A stretch of 28,493 bases of DNA from an uncultured bacterium (GCA_964549305.1 CAZJVM010000019.1:1-28493), one strand, 5' to 3'. Numbered from the stretch's first letter, positions 4,808 to 28,492 are shown. The notes: generated by a model not told the origin, from the sequence alone. Numbers and translations: made by a program.

Positions 4808-5230
4808 TCAGGAAAAAAGCTCCAGCGCGCTGAAATAGAAGGGAATTTCTATACTCGCCGACTCCGGTGAATCTGAACCGTGAACGGCGTTTTTTTCTAT
4901 ATCCGTCCCGAATTGCGCCCTCAGGGTTCCTTCTTCTGCTTCTTTTGAATTTGTTGAGCCCATAATATCTCTTACCCTCTTGATTGCATTATCTCCCTCA
5001 AGGGCTATGGCAACCATTTTTCCCGAAGTCATAAATTTTACAAGGTCATTGTAAAAGGGTTTGTCGCTGTGCACCGCATAGAAAGCGCGCGCATCCTCTA
5101 CGGAAAGTTTTCTTACCTTAAGGGCAAGAATATTGAGCCCTTCCTTCTCGAAACGGCTGATAATCGCGCCGATTGCGTTCTTTTCCACTGCGTCCGGCTT
5201 TATCATTACAAGTGTTCTTTCAGATGCCAT
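4808..5230 (-). CDS. ndk: Nucleoside-diphosphate kinase
   Basis: [22 protein letters not shown] and catalytic NAVHGSDS. Start moved to the ATG at 5230 (MASERT), which has an AGGAG RBS upstream. Confidence 0.97.
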
Positions 5231-5432
5231 AGTTTGTCTCCTGATTTTTTTTTTGATTTGAAGTGCACTCAATACTTGATAAGAAAAGTGTTGTCAAGGC
5301 GCAATGAATCTATACTATTTACAAATATTTTACAGGACACCAATAAATATCAATTAACATTGTGTTTTAAAAAAGGTTACAATTGCAAAAATGTTCGCAA
5401 GCCATATTTAAATTAATAAAAAAGGAAATTTT

Positions 5433-6746
5433 ATGGATTCCAAAAACGGCGCGCCCCTAAGAAAGATTGTGGGAATAGAAATGCCCCCGGACCTGCATAA
5501 GTACAATTTTTACGCACTTTTCTGGTGTTCAATGGTAATGCTCATCGCCATAACGGCACCAACTGTAATACAGCCCATTTATCTGAAAGAAGTAATCGGA
5601 ATCGCTCCCAAAAATTTCGGCAAAATTAATACCGCTCTCGTTGTAATGAATGAAGTGGCATCAATTCTTCTAATCGGTTACGTGGGGCTTCTTTCGGACC
5701 GTTTCGGCAGAAGGAAAATTATGACTTTCGGTCTTGCCGCAAGCGGAATCAGCTTCATAGTTTACGGCTATTCTCACAACATAGCGGCACTGATAAGCGT
5801 CAGCCCCATCATATTGGTTTTCATTTTGAGAACACTTTACGCGCTTTTTCTTCAGTTTGCCTGGCCTCACGTCTTCACCATTATCGGAGACTATACATAT
5901 CCCTCAAGCCGTGGTAAGGGCATGGCGGCAATAGGACTGACATCTGCTTTAGGCGCTCTTTTCGCGTTCAGCGTATTATCTGTCATACCGAGACAGTTCA
6001 GCATACTCGCGGCTTTTTATACCTGCGGAATAATTTTTCTCGTAAGCGCACTTGTCTCCCACTTCGGAATAGTTGACAGAACGGAAAAGCCGTCCGAAAG
6101 CCACAGCAAGGGAGAGCTTCAGCTTTTAAAGGAAGCGTGGCAGGTGGTGAAGGACAGCTCGCCTCTGAAGATGAGCTACGGCGCGGGATTCATATCGAGA
6201 GCTAATGTGGGAGTCCTGGGCACAATAGTGATGATATGGGCGGTAAACTCGGCGCAGGATTTCGGATTGTCCACGACAAAAGCAATGGCTGTGGGGGGAA
6301 TTTCCGTGGGAATATCAGGAATATTCGGAATAATAACGGCTCCTCTTTGGGGAATCCTCACCGACAGGTGGGGCAGGATGAAGACGATATCGTTAAGTTT
6401 AGGATTGACGGGAGTGGGTTTTCTGCTTCTCTATCCTCTCGAAAGCCCTTTCGGTACAGCACTTAAAGTAATTGTCGTTCTCATAGGGGGAGGACAATTC
6501 GGCGCGATGACTGCCGCGACCACCCTTACCACGGATCTTTCGCCGAAAAGAGTTCTCGGTTCGGTGCTCGGGGGATTCAACACTTCAGGCGCTCTGGGCA
6601 TTTTCGTTCTCACGTCATTAGGCGGAATACTATTTGACAGTTTCGGATATACAAGTCCCTTTCTAATCGTCGGGCTTGTAAATCTTGCCGTTGCCCTCTG
6701 GTGCGCGGTAATTTATTTCAAATACGGCGAGAAACAAATTTCATAA
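5433..6746 (+). CDS. Major facilitator superfamily transporter
   Basis: About 12 hydrophobic segments, with MFS motif A twice (GLLSDRFGRR and GILTDRWGRM). Confidence 0.9.
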   Translation: MDSKNGAPLRKIVGIEMPPDLHKYNFYALFWCSMVMLIAITAPTVIQPIYLKEVIGIAPKNFGKINTALVVMNEVASILLIGYVGLLSDRFGRRKIMTFGLAASGISFIVYGYSHNIAALISVSPIILVFILRTLYALFLQFAWPHVFTIIGDYTYPSSRGKGMAAIGLTSALGALFAFSVLSVIPRQFSILAAFYTCGIIFLVSALVSHFGIVDRTEKPSESHSKGELQLLKEAWQVVKDSSPLKMSYGAGFISRANVGVLGTIVMIWAVNSAQDFGLSTTKAMAVGGISVGISGIFGIITAPLWGILTDRWGRMKTISLSLGLTGVGFLLLYPLESPFGTALKVIVVLIGGGQFGAMTAATTLTTDLSPKRVLGSVLGGFNTSGALGIFVLTSLGGILFDSFGYTSPFLIVGLVNLAVALWCAVIYFKYGEKQIS

Positions 6747-16440: not shown

Positions 16441-17328
16441 ATGAGCGGGAACAAGCTGGTAAAACATGATGAAATTAAAAACAGGATTTACACAATTCGC
16501 GGTTTGCAGGTAATGCTGGATGAAGAACTGGCAGAGTTATACGATATAAATACAAAAGTGCTTAACCAAGCTGTCAAAAGGAACAATGAACGATTTCCTG
16601 AAGAATTTATGTTTCAAATTACTGATAATGAATTCAATAGTTTGAGGTCACAAATTGTGACCTCAAACCAGAGAGGTGGAAGACGATATCTGCCTTATGT
16701 TTTTACTGAGCAGGGTGTTGCAATGCTTGCCGGAGTTCTTAAGAGCGAAACGGCAGTAAAAATGAGCATTCAAATTATCAATGCCTTTGTCGCCATGCGC
16801 CGCTTTATTAATGCCAATGCTATGATTTTTCAAAGGTTGGATACCCTTGAAATCAAACAGATTGATACGGATAAAAAAATCAATAACGTGTTAAACGCCA
16901 TTGAGAGCAAAGAAATTAAACCCAAACAGGGTATTTTCTTTGACGGACAGATTTTTGATGCTTATAAGTTTATTTCTGATTTAATCCGATCCGCGCAGAA
17001 ATCAATTATTTTAATCGACAATTATATTGATGATAACGTACTGACTCTTTTTTCAAAACGGCAAAAAGATGTTTCTTTCACGATAATGACAAAAACCATA
17101 TCAAAACAGCTGAAACTTGATGTTAATAAATTCAATAAACAATACTCACCTGTTGTATTAAAGGAATTCAAAAAGTCGCATGATCGTTTTTTGATAATTG
17201 ATGATTATATAGTATATCACTTTGGAGCTTCCCTAAAAGACCTTGGAAAAAAATGGTTTGCATTCTCAAAAATGAAGTTCGAGGCATTGGAAATGCTTAC
17301 CAGATTGGAGAATTTAGAAGAGAAATAA
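16441..17328 (+). CDS. ORF6N (KilA-N-related) DNA-binding domain fused to a PLD-like C-terminal domain
   Basis: IYTIRGLQVMLD..LAELY, LNQAVKRN..RFPEEFMFQ and YVFTEQGVAML (ORF6N); C-terminal IILIDNY, HDRFLIID and HFGASLKDLG. Confidence 0.85.
   Translation: MSGNKLVKHDEIKNRIYTIRGLQVMLDEELAELYDINTKVLNQAVKRNNERFPEEFMFQITDNEFNSLRSQIVTSNQRGGRRYLPYVFTEQGVAMLAGVLKSETAVKMSIQIINAFVAMRRFINANAMIFQRLDTLEIKQIDTDKKINNVLNAIESKEIKPKQGIFFDGQIFDAYKFISDLIRSAQKSIILIDNYIDDNVLTLFSKRQKDVSFTIMTKTISKQLKLDVNKFNKQYSPVVLKEFKKSHDRFLIIDDYIVYHFGASLKDLGKKWFAFSKMKFEALEMLTRLENLEEK
16640..16668. repeat. Perfect 14-1-14 palindrome inside the ORF6N CDS
   Basis: GTTTGAGGTCACAA-A-TTGTGACCTCAAAC, encoding (S)LRSQIVTSN. Confidence 0.97.
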
Positions 17329-20471: not shown

Positions 20472-20553
20472 TTTAACTCCCTCCCTTTTTTTGAGAAAGG
20501 ATAAAATAAATTCCCTGTCAATGCAAGATTCAAAAGGTGGCGTGAATTAAAAA

Positions 20554-20569
20554 TGTTCCACGTGGAACA
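20554..20569. promoter_or_regulatory. parS site 1
   Basis: Perfect TGTTCCACGTGGAACA, upstream of parAB. Confidence 0.95.
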
Positions 20570-20778
20570 TTTCACCCTGTTAAAAAGATGTTTAAAAGTT
20601 TATATTTTTATAACCGAAATCTTTATCTATTTGATTTTAAAGGTTTTTTATTGCCAAAACCCTTTTTTTCTTTATTAACAGGTTATCAACACTAAAAATA
20701 TCTGAAACAAAAAAAAGACCTTTGCTTTTTTATCTCCTTTGTGCTTATCTTGTGAAGGAGCTTTTAAAATATTTTAAA

Positions 20779-20794
20779 TGTTCCACGTGGAACA
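20779..20794. promoter_or_regulatory. parS site 2
   Basis: Perfect TGTTCCACGTGGAACA, about 85 bp upstream of parA. Confidence 0.95.
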
Positions 20795-20878
20795 TTTTTC
20801 AAGCTTGTATTTTTCTGTTGCCCATATTTTTTGAGTTCTGTAGTATGGGCTTGGTTTTTAATTTCCTTTGACTCATAG

Positions 20879-21670
20879 ATGGCTTATCAAAAAATGGGAA
20901 AGGTTATTGCCATAGCAAACCAGAAGGGAGGAGTGGGTAAAACCACGACCTCAATCAACCTTTCTGCCTGTCTCGGTAAAAAAGGGATAAGCACCCTTCT
21001 AATAGACCTCGACCCTCAGGGAAACGCAACAAGCGGACTTGGACTGAATCACGCAGGCACCACTAAATCCATTTATCGCGCTATTCTCGGCAGGAAAACA
21101 ATATCGGAAGTGCTCGCTGACAGCGTTTTTCCTCAACTTAAGGTAATTCCCTCCACAGACGAGCTTTTCGGCGCGGAGGTAGAACTTATGGATGTTTCAC
21201 CGCGCGAATCCCTTCTGAAAAGCTGTCTTGGCGACATAATCGACGATTTCCAGTATATCATCATAGACTGCCCACCGTCACTTGGCGTTTTAACCGTAAA
21301 TGCCCTTTGCGCGGCGGATTCCGTCCTAATTCCTCTTCAGTGTGAATACTACGCCCTCGAAGGCGTTGCTCAAATTCTCACCACAATCGGCAAAATAAAG
21401 GAAGCGCTCAATCCCGGACTCTACATTGAAGGAATTCTCCTTACAATGCAGGATTTAAGGACAAATCTTTCCGGCGAAGTATGTGAAAATGTGAGGGAAC
21501 AATTTGGGGATAAAGTGTTTAAAACGGTAATTCCGAGAAATGTACGCCTCTCTGAAGCGCCGAGTTATGGACAACCTATTATTCTTTATGACCCGAATTC
21601 AAAGGGCGCGGAAACCTATAAACAACTTACAGAGGAAATTATAAACAATGAAAAGGAAATCGCTGGGTAA
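20879..21670 (+). CDS. parA: Chromosome partitioning ATPase ParA/Soj
   Basis: ANQKGGVGKTTT, DLDPQGNAT, IIDCPPSLG, QCEYYALEG and IPRNVRLSEAPSYG. Start could be ATG 20894. Confidence 0.97.
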   Translation: MAYQKMGKVIAIANQKGGVGKTTTSINLSACLGKKGISTLLIDLDPQGNATSGLGLNHAGTTKSIYRAILGRKTISEVLADSVFPQLKVIPSTDELFGAEVELMDVSPRESLLKSCLGDIIDDFQYIIIDCPPSLGVLTVNALCAADSVLIPLQCEYYALEGVAQILTTIGKIKEALNPGLYIEGILLTMQDLRTNLSGEVCENVREQFGDKVFKTVIPRNVRLSEAPSYGQPIILYDPNSKGAETYKQLTEEIINNEKEIAG

Positions 21671-22508
21671 GGGACTGGACGCGTTAATATCGCCAAAAGG
21701 CAAAATAGACGGTGATAAAAAAGATTATGTTTCCAATATTGAAGTAAAGGATATAAAACCGGGACCTCATCAGCCAAGAAAAAGCTTTGACGACGACAAG
21801 ATGAAAGAGCTCATATCTTCAATCAGGACAAAAGGCGTCATTCAGCCGATTCTCGTGAAGAAAACAGGGAAACACTTTACCATTATCGCCGGTGAAAGAA
21901 GGTGGAGAGCGGCTAAAAAGGCAGATCTCAAGAAAATCCCCGCAATTATAAAGAATATTTCAAATAAAGAGCTTGAGGAGATAGCGCTGATTGAAAACAT
22001 TCAGCGCGAGGATTTAAATCCCATCGAGGAAGCACAGGCATACAAACACCTTATGGAAGACCACAACCTGAACCAGAATGAGCTTGCATCGTTAGTTGGA
22101 AAGGAAAGAAGCACCATAACAAACTACCTAAGATTACTGAAACTTCCAAAAAAGGTGAGAAACTATCTACTTGAAAACAAAATATCGATGGGGCATGCAC
22201 GCGTTTTATGCGGTGTCGACGATGAAGCAAAACAGACTGACCTTGCGGAAATGATTATCAGAGACAATCTGTCCGTACGACAAACCGAAAAAATTGCTTC
22301 TAAAGGAATTAAAGTCGAAAAAAAGAAAAAAGAACACAAAGGCAAACAGGTTTCTCCGGAAATTCTTTCCCTCGAGGAAAAGTTGAGAAGCGCTCTTGCA
22401 ACAAAGGTAAAGCTTTCTCATAACGAAAAGACAAACCACGGAAAGATTACCATCGAATATTACTCCCTTGATGAATTGGACAGGATGCTGGACATACTAA
22501 CTGAATAA
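21648..22508 (+). CDS. parB: Chromosome partitioning CTPase ParB/Spo0J
   Basis: LGKGLDALI, QPRK.F, GVIQPI, IIAGERRWRA, ENIQREDLNPIEEA, HTH GKERSTITNYLRLL and GHAR. Confidence 0.97.
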   Translation: MKRKSLGKGLDALISPKGKIDGDKKDYVSNIEVKDIKPGPHQPRKSFDDDKMKELISSIRTKGVIQPILVKKTGKHFTIIAGERRWRAAKKADLKKIPAIIKNISNKELEEIALIENIQREDLNPIEEAQAYKHLMEDHNLNQNELASLVGKERSTITNYLRLLKLPKKVRNYLLENKISMGHARVLCGVDDEAKQTDLAEMIIRDNLSVRQTEKIASKGIKVEKKKKEHKGKQVSPEILSLEEKLRSALATKVKLSHNEKTNHGKITIEYYSLDELDRMLDILTE

Positions 22509-27844: not shown

Positions 27845-28492
27845 ATGAAACCCGAAGGATCAAAAGGCGAAATCATTATCTATAAACCGCAAAAGGGAGA
27901 AGGCCATATCGAAGTACATCTTGAAGATGAAACCGTATGGTTGACACAGGCACAGATGGTAAAACTGTTTCAAAAAACAAAGCAAAATATAAGTCTTCAT
28001 ATTCGCAATATATTCAAAGAAGGTGAATTAAATAAGAAATCAGTTGTCAAGGATTCCTTGACAACTGCCAAAGATGGAAAAAGATATAAAACACAATATT
28101 ACAACCTGGATGTTATTATTTCCGTAGGTTATCGTGTCAGGTCAAAACGGGGCACCCAATTTCGTATCTGGGCAACTACCGTGTTAAAAGACAACCTTAT
28201 CAATGGGTATTCCATCAACGAGAAGCGGCTAAAAGAACAAAACATCCGGTTGCAGGATCTTCAAAAAACCGTGAACCTGATGGGACGCCTTCTCGATGTC
28301 AAGGAATTGGATCAAAACGAAACGGCTGGACTGTTTAAAGTAATAACCGATTACTCATATGCTCTTACTGTTCTTGACCGCTATGACCGGTCAAAGCTTA
28401 AAATTCAAAAAACTACCTGCAAAAAAGAATTTGTTCTGACATATGAAAAAGCATGTTCGGTAATTTCACTACTCGGCAAAGAACTCAAAAAT
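27845..28492 (+). CDS. RhuM-family protein, probably a RhuM-Fic/Doc fusion; truncated at the window end and absent from the ORF track
   Basis: Manual translation: MKPEGSKGEIIIY...ETVWLTQAQMVKLFQKTKQNISLHIRNIFKEGEL...YNLDVIISVGYRVRSKRGTQFRIWAT...DYSYALTVLDRYD. AGGA RBS upstream and no stop before the window end. Confidence 0.85.
   Translation, partial: MKPEGSKGEIIIYKPQKGEGHIEVHLEDETVWLTQAQMVKLFQKTKQNISLHIRNIFKEGELNKKSVVKDSLTTAKDGKRYKTQYYNLDVIISVGYRVRSKRGTQFRIWATTVLKDNLINGYSINEKRLKEQNIRLQDLQKTVNLMGRLLDVKELDQNETAGLFKVITDYSYALTVLDRYDRSKLKIQKTTCKKEFVLTYEKACSVISLLGKELKN
28041..28067. repeat. Perfect 13-1-13 palindrome inside the RhuM CDS
   Basis: CAGTTGTCAAGGA-T-TCCTTGACAACTG, encoding SVVKDSLTT(A). 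Confidence 0.97.

Follow-up and report, generated by a model that had tools for sequence, protein, structure and literature searches.

The RhuM-family gene at one end of a 28,493-nucleotide stretch of DNA from an uncultured bacterium (GCA_964549305.1, CAZJVM010000019.1:1-28493; this whole stretch is called the window below) contains a perfect palindrome at 28041-28067. Comparison with related genes suggests that this palindrome is probably the operator of the winged-helix domain that the same gene is predicted to encode. In RhuM genes the dyad is kept by changes that compensate each other in the two arms, and its bases follow the residues of the predicted recognition helix.

A perfect palindrome inside the RhuM gene

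The RhuM gene (27845..28492, plus strand) is open at its 3' end, the window stopping after its first 216 codons. The palindrome, CAGTTGTCAAGGATTCCTTGACAACTG, has two 13-nt arms with 100% complementarity around a single T at 28054, and its stem is 41% G+C. It overlaps codons S66 to T74 (SVVKDSLTT) and is centred on the third position of codon D70. The first-pass annotation had described this 13-1-13 palindrome, the peptide that it encodes and its position between a helix-turn-helix-like block and YNLDVIISVGYRV, and the sequence agrees with it on each of these points. Base composition predicts 0.0005 palindromes of this form per window, or 0.003 if spacers of 0-5 nt are allowed. When the window was shuffled in 3-nt blocks, an arm of at least 13 nt arose in 2 of 200 shuffles.

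Extra copies of the arm, for which the annotation suggested a search, are absent: the copy search in the source genome covered the window alone, and elsewhere in the window there is no 13-mer with fewer than three mismatches to the arm. A second copy or an inversion partner of the whole palindrome is likewise not seen in the window, which speaks against the suggestion of a variable specificity cassette in the sense of a switch. The inner half-site TGTCAAGGA has an exact 9-nt copy at 28297-28305, in the same gene and 250 nt further in; about 0.2 such matches are expected by chance per window, and this one may mean nothing. The motif TTGACA is present at 28058-28063, as had been pointed out. It is confined to one type of half-site and absent from the other types, so the idea of a promoter element in the arms finds no support.

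The RhuM gene product and its predicted fold

The gene product matches the RhuM family (PF13310) over residues 66-153, with an E-value of 1.3e-24 and a score of 87.4 bits against a cut-off of 33.7. The match covers profile positions 1-88 of 252, the remainder of the profile falling past the end of the window, and it begins exactly at residue 66, which is the first codon of the palindrome. The family is large, 7999 RhuM relatives were scored in one search. Homologues of 54-75% identity are about 335 amino acids long and contain PF13310 together with a Fic/DOC domain (PF02661). The annotation had expected a Fic/Doc domain downstream, and this expectation holds for these relatives; the window itself stops at residue 216. 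A protein of 266 amino acids that is 99% identical to the window product (P0003, on a contig of 999 nt) departs from the family past residue 216. The precomputed Pfam listing gives no Fic match for P0003, and over its tail the alignment with the Fic region of the other relatives is poor; this lineage may have a disrupted Fic part.

The gene product was modelled with AlphaFold2 using 36 relatives. The model is weak overall (mean pLDDT 57.9), with 10-residue block means of pLDDT 67-88 over residues 31-100. The predicted N-terminal layout is that of a winged helix-turn-helix: a strand (residues 30-34) is followed by the first helix of the helix-turn-helix (codons 35-42, 27947..27970, plus strand), by the recognition helix (codons 46-58, 27980..28018, plus strand) and by a beta hairpin. 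The blocks that include the two helices, over residues 31-60, have mean pLDDT values of 78-88. The hairpin would form the wing, its first strand being codons 68-74 (28046..28066, plus strand) and its second strand codons 80-86 (28082..28102, plus strand). The palindrome thus falls in the codons of the predicted first wing strand, some 200 nt from the start of the reading frame. A Foldseek search against the PDB gave no match at an E-value of 0.001 or below, the weak top matches include winged helices of TFIIE, PadR, MarR-type and ArsR-type proteins. Among solved structures, PDB 9vzc matches the Doc part only (E-value 7.6e-06) and the N-terminal domain has no match.

Conservation of the dyad in RhuM genes

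Codon alignment of RhuM homologues had been proposed as a check on the palindrome. Our sample consisted of 93 genes: 80 genome loci from representative genomes of many phyla (36-70% identity), 12 plasmid genes (31-46% identity, including Actinomycetota and Alphaproteobacteria) and the window gene. A dyad is present at the same codon in all 93, each with at least 8 of 11 dyad pairs. Among the 77 loci that align by codon without gaps, all 13 pairs are complementary in 13 loci, 12 pairs in 19, 11 in 34, 10 in four and 9 in two. The other five of the 77 score 2-4 pairs at this centre, but they do contain the palindrome, with its centre shifted by 1 nt. The palindrome is also present in three loci that were aligned with gaps.

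The sequence of the palindrome is not itself conserved. There are 34 distinct left-arm 10-mers among the RhuM genes, and the peptides encoded by the palindrome vary in the same way (VVKDSLTT, VVAKFATT, VVRNFRTT, VCAKFAHT, VIRNFRIT, TVKESLTV and TTEESSVV are examples). The encoded wing strand switches among A/A, R/R, K/L and E/S pairs while the dyad persists.

The dyad stands out from the rest of the gene under three controls. When the centre was slid along the aligned gene, 609 centres gave a mean of 3.42 of 13 pairs (sd 0.74); the centre at codon 70 position 3 gave a mean of 10.68 and the runner-up 5.88. Codons were then redrawn among synonyms according to the gene's own codon usage, keeping the peptide, in 73 genes (the five shifted and three gapped loci were omitted). 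The observed number of complementary pairs was 842 of 949, against 622.6 in 2000 draws (sd 9.0, maximum 654). Four of the pairs join a third codon position with another third position, and these are complementary in 71, 57, 73 and 73 of the 73 genes, against an expectation of 26-35%. Mismatches in the same 73 genes number 30 at pair 12 and 21 at pair 13, next to the centre, and there are none at pairs 8-11. In an alignment of 78 rows, 88.1% of cells pair (64.0% in shuffles), and both sides have changed in 276 cells (90.4 in shuffles). The arms co-vary with a score of 0.694 (shuffles, 0.252), a value that none of 500 shuffles attained; with the partners slid by 1-3 columns the score is at most 0.094.

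These controls bear on the possibility that the palindrome is there by chance, its amino-acid sequence being one that a palindrome can encode. The peptide SVVKDSLTTA does fix 7 of the 13 pairs, and the codon-shuffle null already reaches 8.53 of 13. The 842 pairs are nevertheless far beyond the maximum of the shuffles, and the peptide varies while the dyad stays. Codon-aligned conservation, the centre slide, the codon shuffles and covariation together refute this explanation, and we give it next to no credence. Since the slide, codon-redraw and covariation controls are all exceeded, we infer that the dyad is held at the level of the nucleic acid, either by selection or by a strong homogenising process, and that it is the protein sequence which yields. 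A DNA signal can in this way override amino-acid conservation, which matters when RhuM proteins are aligned or modelled.

The palindrome co-varies with the predicted recognition helix

When the RhuM genes are sorted by type of palindrome, the type follows the second helix. The base at position -4 from the centre, in both arms, can be compared with residue 51 (in the window L51, codon 27995-27997, plus strand) in all 93 genes. Glutamate occurs with G in 15 genes, arginine with C in 35 and lysine with C in 13. The base is A in the remaining classes, which have leucine (20 genes), methionine (three), glutamine (five), tyrosine (one) or histidine (one). This rule has no exception among the 93 genes. 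It was formed on 78 genes, the 15 genes that were added later being held out; 14 of 14 held-out genes obey it, and the fifteenth has a new residue, histidine, with A.

Bases further out follow other residues of the same helix. The bases 7-8 nt from the centre are GT with K46/S50 (the residues of the window gene), TG with R46 and glycine or threonine at 50, and AT with V46/N50. These combinations are found within different residue-51 classes. Expressed as normalised mutual information (MI/H), residues 44, 45, 47, 48 and 51 score 0.47-0.68 against the core bases, and residues 46 and 50 score 0.68 and 0.54 against the outer bases. MI/H is 0.02-0.26 throughout residues 53-65, whose codons are closer to the palindrome. 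Most of these residues vary about as much as those of the helix, the entropy of residues 54, 56, 58-60 and 63-65 being 1.2-2.9 bits and that of the helix residues 2.0-2.7 bits. Judged from these alignments, the coupling is localised at the predicted recognition helix.

Residues 46, 47, 50 and 51 are positions 1, 2, 5 and 6 of the predicted helix. In helix-turn-helix proteins these are the positions of the recognition helix that face the DNA. The usual preferences in such contacts are glutamate with G:C, arginine or lysine with C:G and glutamine with A:T. The RhuM genes with a dyad displaced by 1 nt conform as well, having the core TGCA together with arginine or lysine. Two properties of an operator are found here: the dyad symmetry has a fixed centre and fixed half-site spacing, and the bases of the site co-vary with the DNA-reading residues, the phylogenetic control on this second property being underpowered.

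For that control a tree was built from 91 columns with the helix and wing excluded. The traits show 9-18 changes on this tree. The associations, given as both traits, first only, second only and neither, are 12/0/0/66, 24/0/1/53 and 40/0/1/37. Tests controlled for the tree were underpowered, with five independent pairs each on well-supported branches; 5 of 5, 5 of 5 and 4 of 5 pairs agree and none is opposite (p 0.06-0.125). The tree-controlled test alone does not settle the coupling of helix and palindrome.

The conserved stem might also be explained by selection for a hairpin in the mRNA, or in DNA that is single-stranded while it is transferred or replicated, the link to the helix then being a matter of shared descent with the adjoining DNA. 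Such a hairpin might serve in pausing, in processing, in stability or in priming. A selected stem does show compensatory change in both arms. The hairpin would be stable as RNA (-18.9 kcal/mol, z -4.57), and conservation is lowest at the pairs that flank the centre, as in a loop. However, the stem mismatches on the sense strand are 15 A.C and 5 G.T; because they show no preference for G.U, duplex DNA fits better than mRNA. The sequence downstream of the hairpin, GCCAAAGATGG, contains no T run and so does not resemble an intrinsic terminator. No RNA family is matched either: Rfam 15 returned nothing at the gathering score, its sole match being to sRNA154 with 19.7 bits against 88 (E-value 0.25). 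A selected hairpin also gives no reason for the rule between base -4 and residue 51, which holds in all 93 genes and in the held-out set and recurs in the ORF6N family (below), and it leaves unexplained why the variable residues 53-65 are uncoupled when they lie nearer in the DNA. We consider a hairpin of this kind unlikely.

Dyads in ORF6N and Bro-N genes

A second perfect palindrome in the window, 14-1-14 at 16640..16668, lies within an ORF6N gene (16441..17328). Its centre is the first base of codon I72, so the difference in codon phase that the annotation noted, position 3 in RhuM and position 1 in ORF6N, is correct. The two palindromes had been called unrelated, but they are the same class of element and obey the same helix-to-base rule. 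We collected 18 ORF6N dyads, comprising the window copy, 14 plasmid copies and three found within RhuM loci. All 18 have at least 8 of 10 pairs and a centre 81-99 nt past the helix codon, and their sequences differ. The helix residue that precedes A/S/T-V in the motif LNQAVKRN can be compared with the bases at -5 and -4. Glutamine occurs with CA in nine dyads (including that of the window), glutamate with CG in four, arginine with GC in four and lysine with TC in one. These assignments are those of RhuM, although the centre is on codon position 1 and the encoded residues consequently differ.

A salt bridge within the protein, between E51 and R69/R72, was considered as a cause of the coupling. 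It was rejected because ORF6N and the shifted RhuM class have the same bases and helix residues with other encoded residues.

A profile comparison of the RhuM and ORF6N alignments detected no homology (probability 0.2). The places of the two dyads may be regarded as analogous and are not proven homologous, their likeness being one of motif order.

A third family is represented by a Bro-N gene (PF02498, E-value 3e-07) that adjoins one of the RhuM loci. This gene and three phage relatives have 11, 11, 10 and 8 of 11 dyad pairs. In these four genes the dyad is found just upstream of a DGK/DGR motif, with its centre on codon position 2.

The retention of dyads in these families is relevant to an explanation in which the palindrome is functionless, changes in one arm are copied to the other by template switching during replication, and selection on the protein filters the outcome. 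Template switching is well known as a mutational process that corrects quasi-palindromes, and a dyad maintained in this way would have perfect arms, synonymous sites included, and lineage-specific sequences, as observed; single-transition intermediates of both kinds also occur. An unselected dyad should vanish irreversibly, yet it is retained in 93 of 93 RhuM genes, 18 of 18 ORF6N genes and 4 of 4 Bro-N genes, and this retention spans many phyla and identities down to 31%. Nor does conversion between arms explain why the palindrome is coupled to a helix whose codons lie about 60 nt upstream. A functionless palindrome of this origin seems to us improbable.

The RhuM N-terminal domain, ORF6N and Bro-N may each encode their own predicted operator within the codons of the domain, as a portable self-regulating module kept across bacterial phyla and phages. 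We put this forward tentatively, as a serious possibility suggested by the alignments. Such a module would explain how much-shuffled domains are controlled wherever they are inserted. With the site and its reader adjacent, a recognition code could be obtained from sequence alone, from helix position 6 to base -4; this code would read glutamate to G, arginine or lysine to C, and glutamine, leucine or methionine to A.

Genomic neighbourhoods of RhuM genes

The genes around the RhuM gene in the window are ordinary chromosomal genes, including RecX, LD-carboxypeptidase and ParA/ParB. Neighbours were annotated for 38 of the 76 loci for which they had been picked (68 of 136 ORFs). Among these 38 loci the neighbours include restriction-modification genes (eight), integrases (four) and AbiEii (two). 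These counts agree with the passages on RhuM in PMC9881135 and PMC3710099.

Such surroundings might suit a palindrome that serves as a recombination or integration site, exchanging the N-terminal and C-terminal modules of much-shuffled genes. In keeping with this, RhuM genes occur in restriction-modification and integrase contexts, the PF13310 model starts at the first codon of the palindrome, and the traits are scattered over the rest-of-protein tree, as described above. In addition, orphan dyads lie outside recognisable genes at 4962-4988 of one locus (L046) and at 5234-5260 of another (L029). Tyrosine-recombinase core sites of the dif and lox type have inverted arms of 11-13 bp and, as a textbook value, a spacer of 6-8 bp, whereas the spacer is 1 nt in the window palindrome and 1-5 nt in its relatives. 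Both flanks of the dyad are conserved together in the alignment, and similarity among relatives breaks near residue 130, not at residue 66. No recombinase is consistently adjacent, the integrases adjoining just those four of the 38 loci. A recombination site is in our view very improbable.

The L029 palindrome at 5234-5260 is a 13-1-13 palindrome of ORF6N type, it differs from that of the window at the outermost bases only. It is found in a high-G+C genome and in no ORF with a Pfam match, and may be a remnant or an orphan site.

A further locus (L053) has a direct repeat of about 70 nt on either side of its RhuM gene, at 4880-4960 and 6010-6080. The repeat contains a 13-1-13 palindrome upstream and a 9-1-9 palindrome downstream. 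It looks as if this RhuM gene was inserted into, or duplicated, a promoter region adjacent to a serine-recombinase-like gene. The palindrome upstream of the L053 gene was considered as support for an operator and was not counted, it is part of the repeat and its sequence is unlike the in-gene dyad.

A proposed self-encoded operator

We favour a candidate operator over the other explanations; none of the four accounts for the helix-to-base rule. The annotation had proposed an autoregulatory operator. The comparative evidence, with a compensated dyad in 93 of 93 genes and co-variation with the helix, supports that part of the proposal which concerns the site; binding and a regulatory effect remain predictions.

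In the operator reading, each half-site of the dyad would be occupied by one copy of the protein, with the recognition helix (residues 46-58) in the major groove. Residue 51 would read the base pair 4 nt from the centre, and the pairs 7-8 nt out would be read by residues 46 and 50. The bound protein could then block an elongating RNA polymerase about 200 nt into the gene, and negative autoregulation is the most likely consequence. The DNA-binding domain would always move together with its operator, regardless of the promoter or C-terminal module that the gene acquired, and a module that brings its own operator would stay controlled in changing surroundings.

We looked for further copies of the arms in 73 loci (641 kb, window included). 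No locus has a second exact copy of its own arm and there is no extra exact copy anywhere in this set, unlike what is expected of a dispersed repeat of REP or MITE type, which has many copies per genome and these mainly in intergenic DNA. Copies with at most one mismatch number 10, against two for a control with shuffled arms, and two of the 10 are accounted for by the single upstream copy in L046. The lack of a second exact copy counts against the operator reading, as autoregulators usually have a binding site at the promoter and the arrangement would be unusual.

A true second copy is present in L046 only, among the 73 loci. The upstream dyad of this locus (4962-4988, mentioned above) is 13-1-13 and precedes the start codon of the RhuM gene by 13-39 nt. 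It is one compensated pair apart from the in-gene dyad of the same locus (5215-5240). L046 also contains a weaker dyad of RhuM type at about 4860-4882, just past the upstream gene.

If the operator reading is correct, the N-terminal half of a very common and uncharacterised family would gain a testable function, down to which residue reads which base. Thousands of natural pairs of operator and reader could be read from genomes, and these could be used in the study of winged-helix specificity and in engineering. It would also explain a promoter-independent restraint of genes that lie in restriction-modification and defence islands, many of which are fused to a Fic/Doc toxin domain.

Comparison with known systems

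The phage lambda O protein binds the ori iterons, which are dyad-symmetric and lie inside gene O. The lambda O system is like the proposed RhuM operator in that dyad sites are within the coding sequence of their own binder, and in that sites and specificity differ together among related elements. It differs in having four tandem iterons, which serve replication and encode a linker, whereas RhuM has a single dyad in the codons of the predicted wing. Nothing about the RhuM dyad indicates an origin of replication.

The PurR site in purB and lac O2 in lacZ are intragenic operators that act as transcriptional roadblocks. As proposed for RhuM, these are palindromic repressor sites a few hundred nucleotides inside a reading frame which can hinder elongation. 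Their regulators are encoded elsewhere and the sites are auxiliary or gene-specific; in RhuM the predicted regulator is the product of the gene itself, and the dyad is present in three protein families.

Roi of phage HK022, a phage protein of Rha/KilA type, reportedly has a binding site within its own gene, an observation credited to Clerget and Boccard in 1996. Roi resembles the proposed RhuM system in belonging to a related group of domains, in being a phage regulator and in having its site inside its own gene. The HK022 roi gene (L095, 34655-35380) contains no perfect palindrome with an arm of at least 7 nt, and Roi is without a RhuM-type element in perfect-palindrome form. The 1996 work on HK022 Roi is cited in a passage of PMC3430580.

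In passages of PMC3710099 and PMC9881135, RhuM is presented either as a putative toxin or as a gene next to phase-variable hsdS. The RhuM and RhuM-Fic-DOC genes of restriction-modification and defence islands treated there belong to the same protein family as the window gene, and the passages on RhuM in these two papers mention neither an N-terminal DNA-binding domain nor the palindrome. We found no published description of an in-gene palindrome in RhuM, ORF6N or Bro-N in the open-access literature, supplements aside.

Other palindromes in the window and in RhuM loci

One locus (L072) contains a second RhuM paralogue at 230-1240, in tandem with the first and upstream of it. This paralogue has its own dyad of another type (10-5-10, at 430-454).

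Four loci (L022, L042, L048 and L054) contain palindromes that are G+C-rich or long and are repeated within the locus, those of L048 being of the type CCCTCTCCC and those of L054 having arms of 16-21 nt. These look like dispersed palindromic repeats that are unrelated to the RhuM dyad.

In the window, two identical perfect palindromes of 22 bp, AAATGTTCCACGTGGAACATTT, are found at 20551-20572 and 20776-20797, in the gap upstream of parA (20879-21670) and parB (21648-22508). They resemble parS centromere sites.
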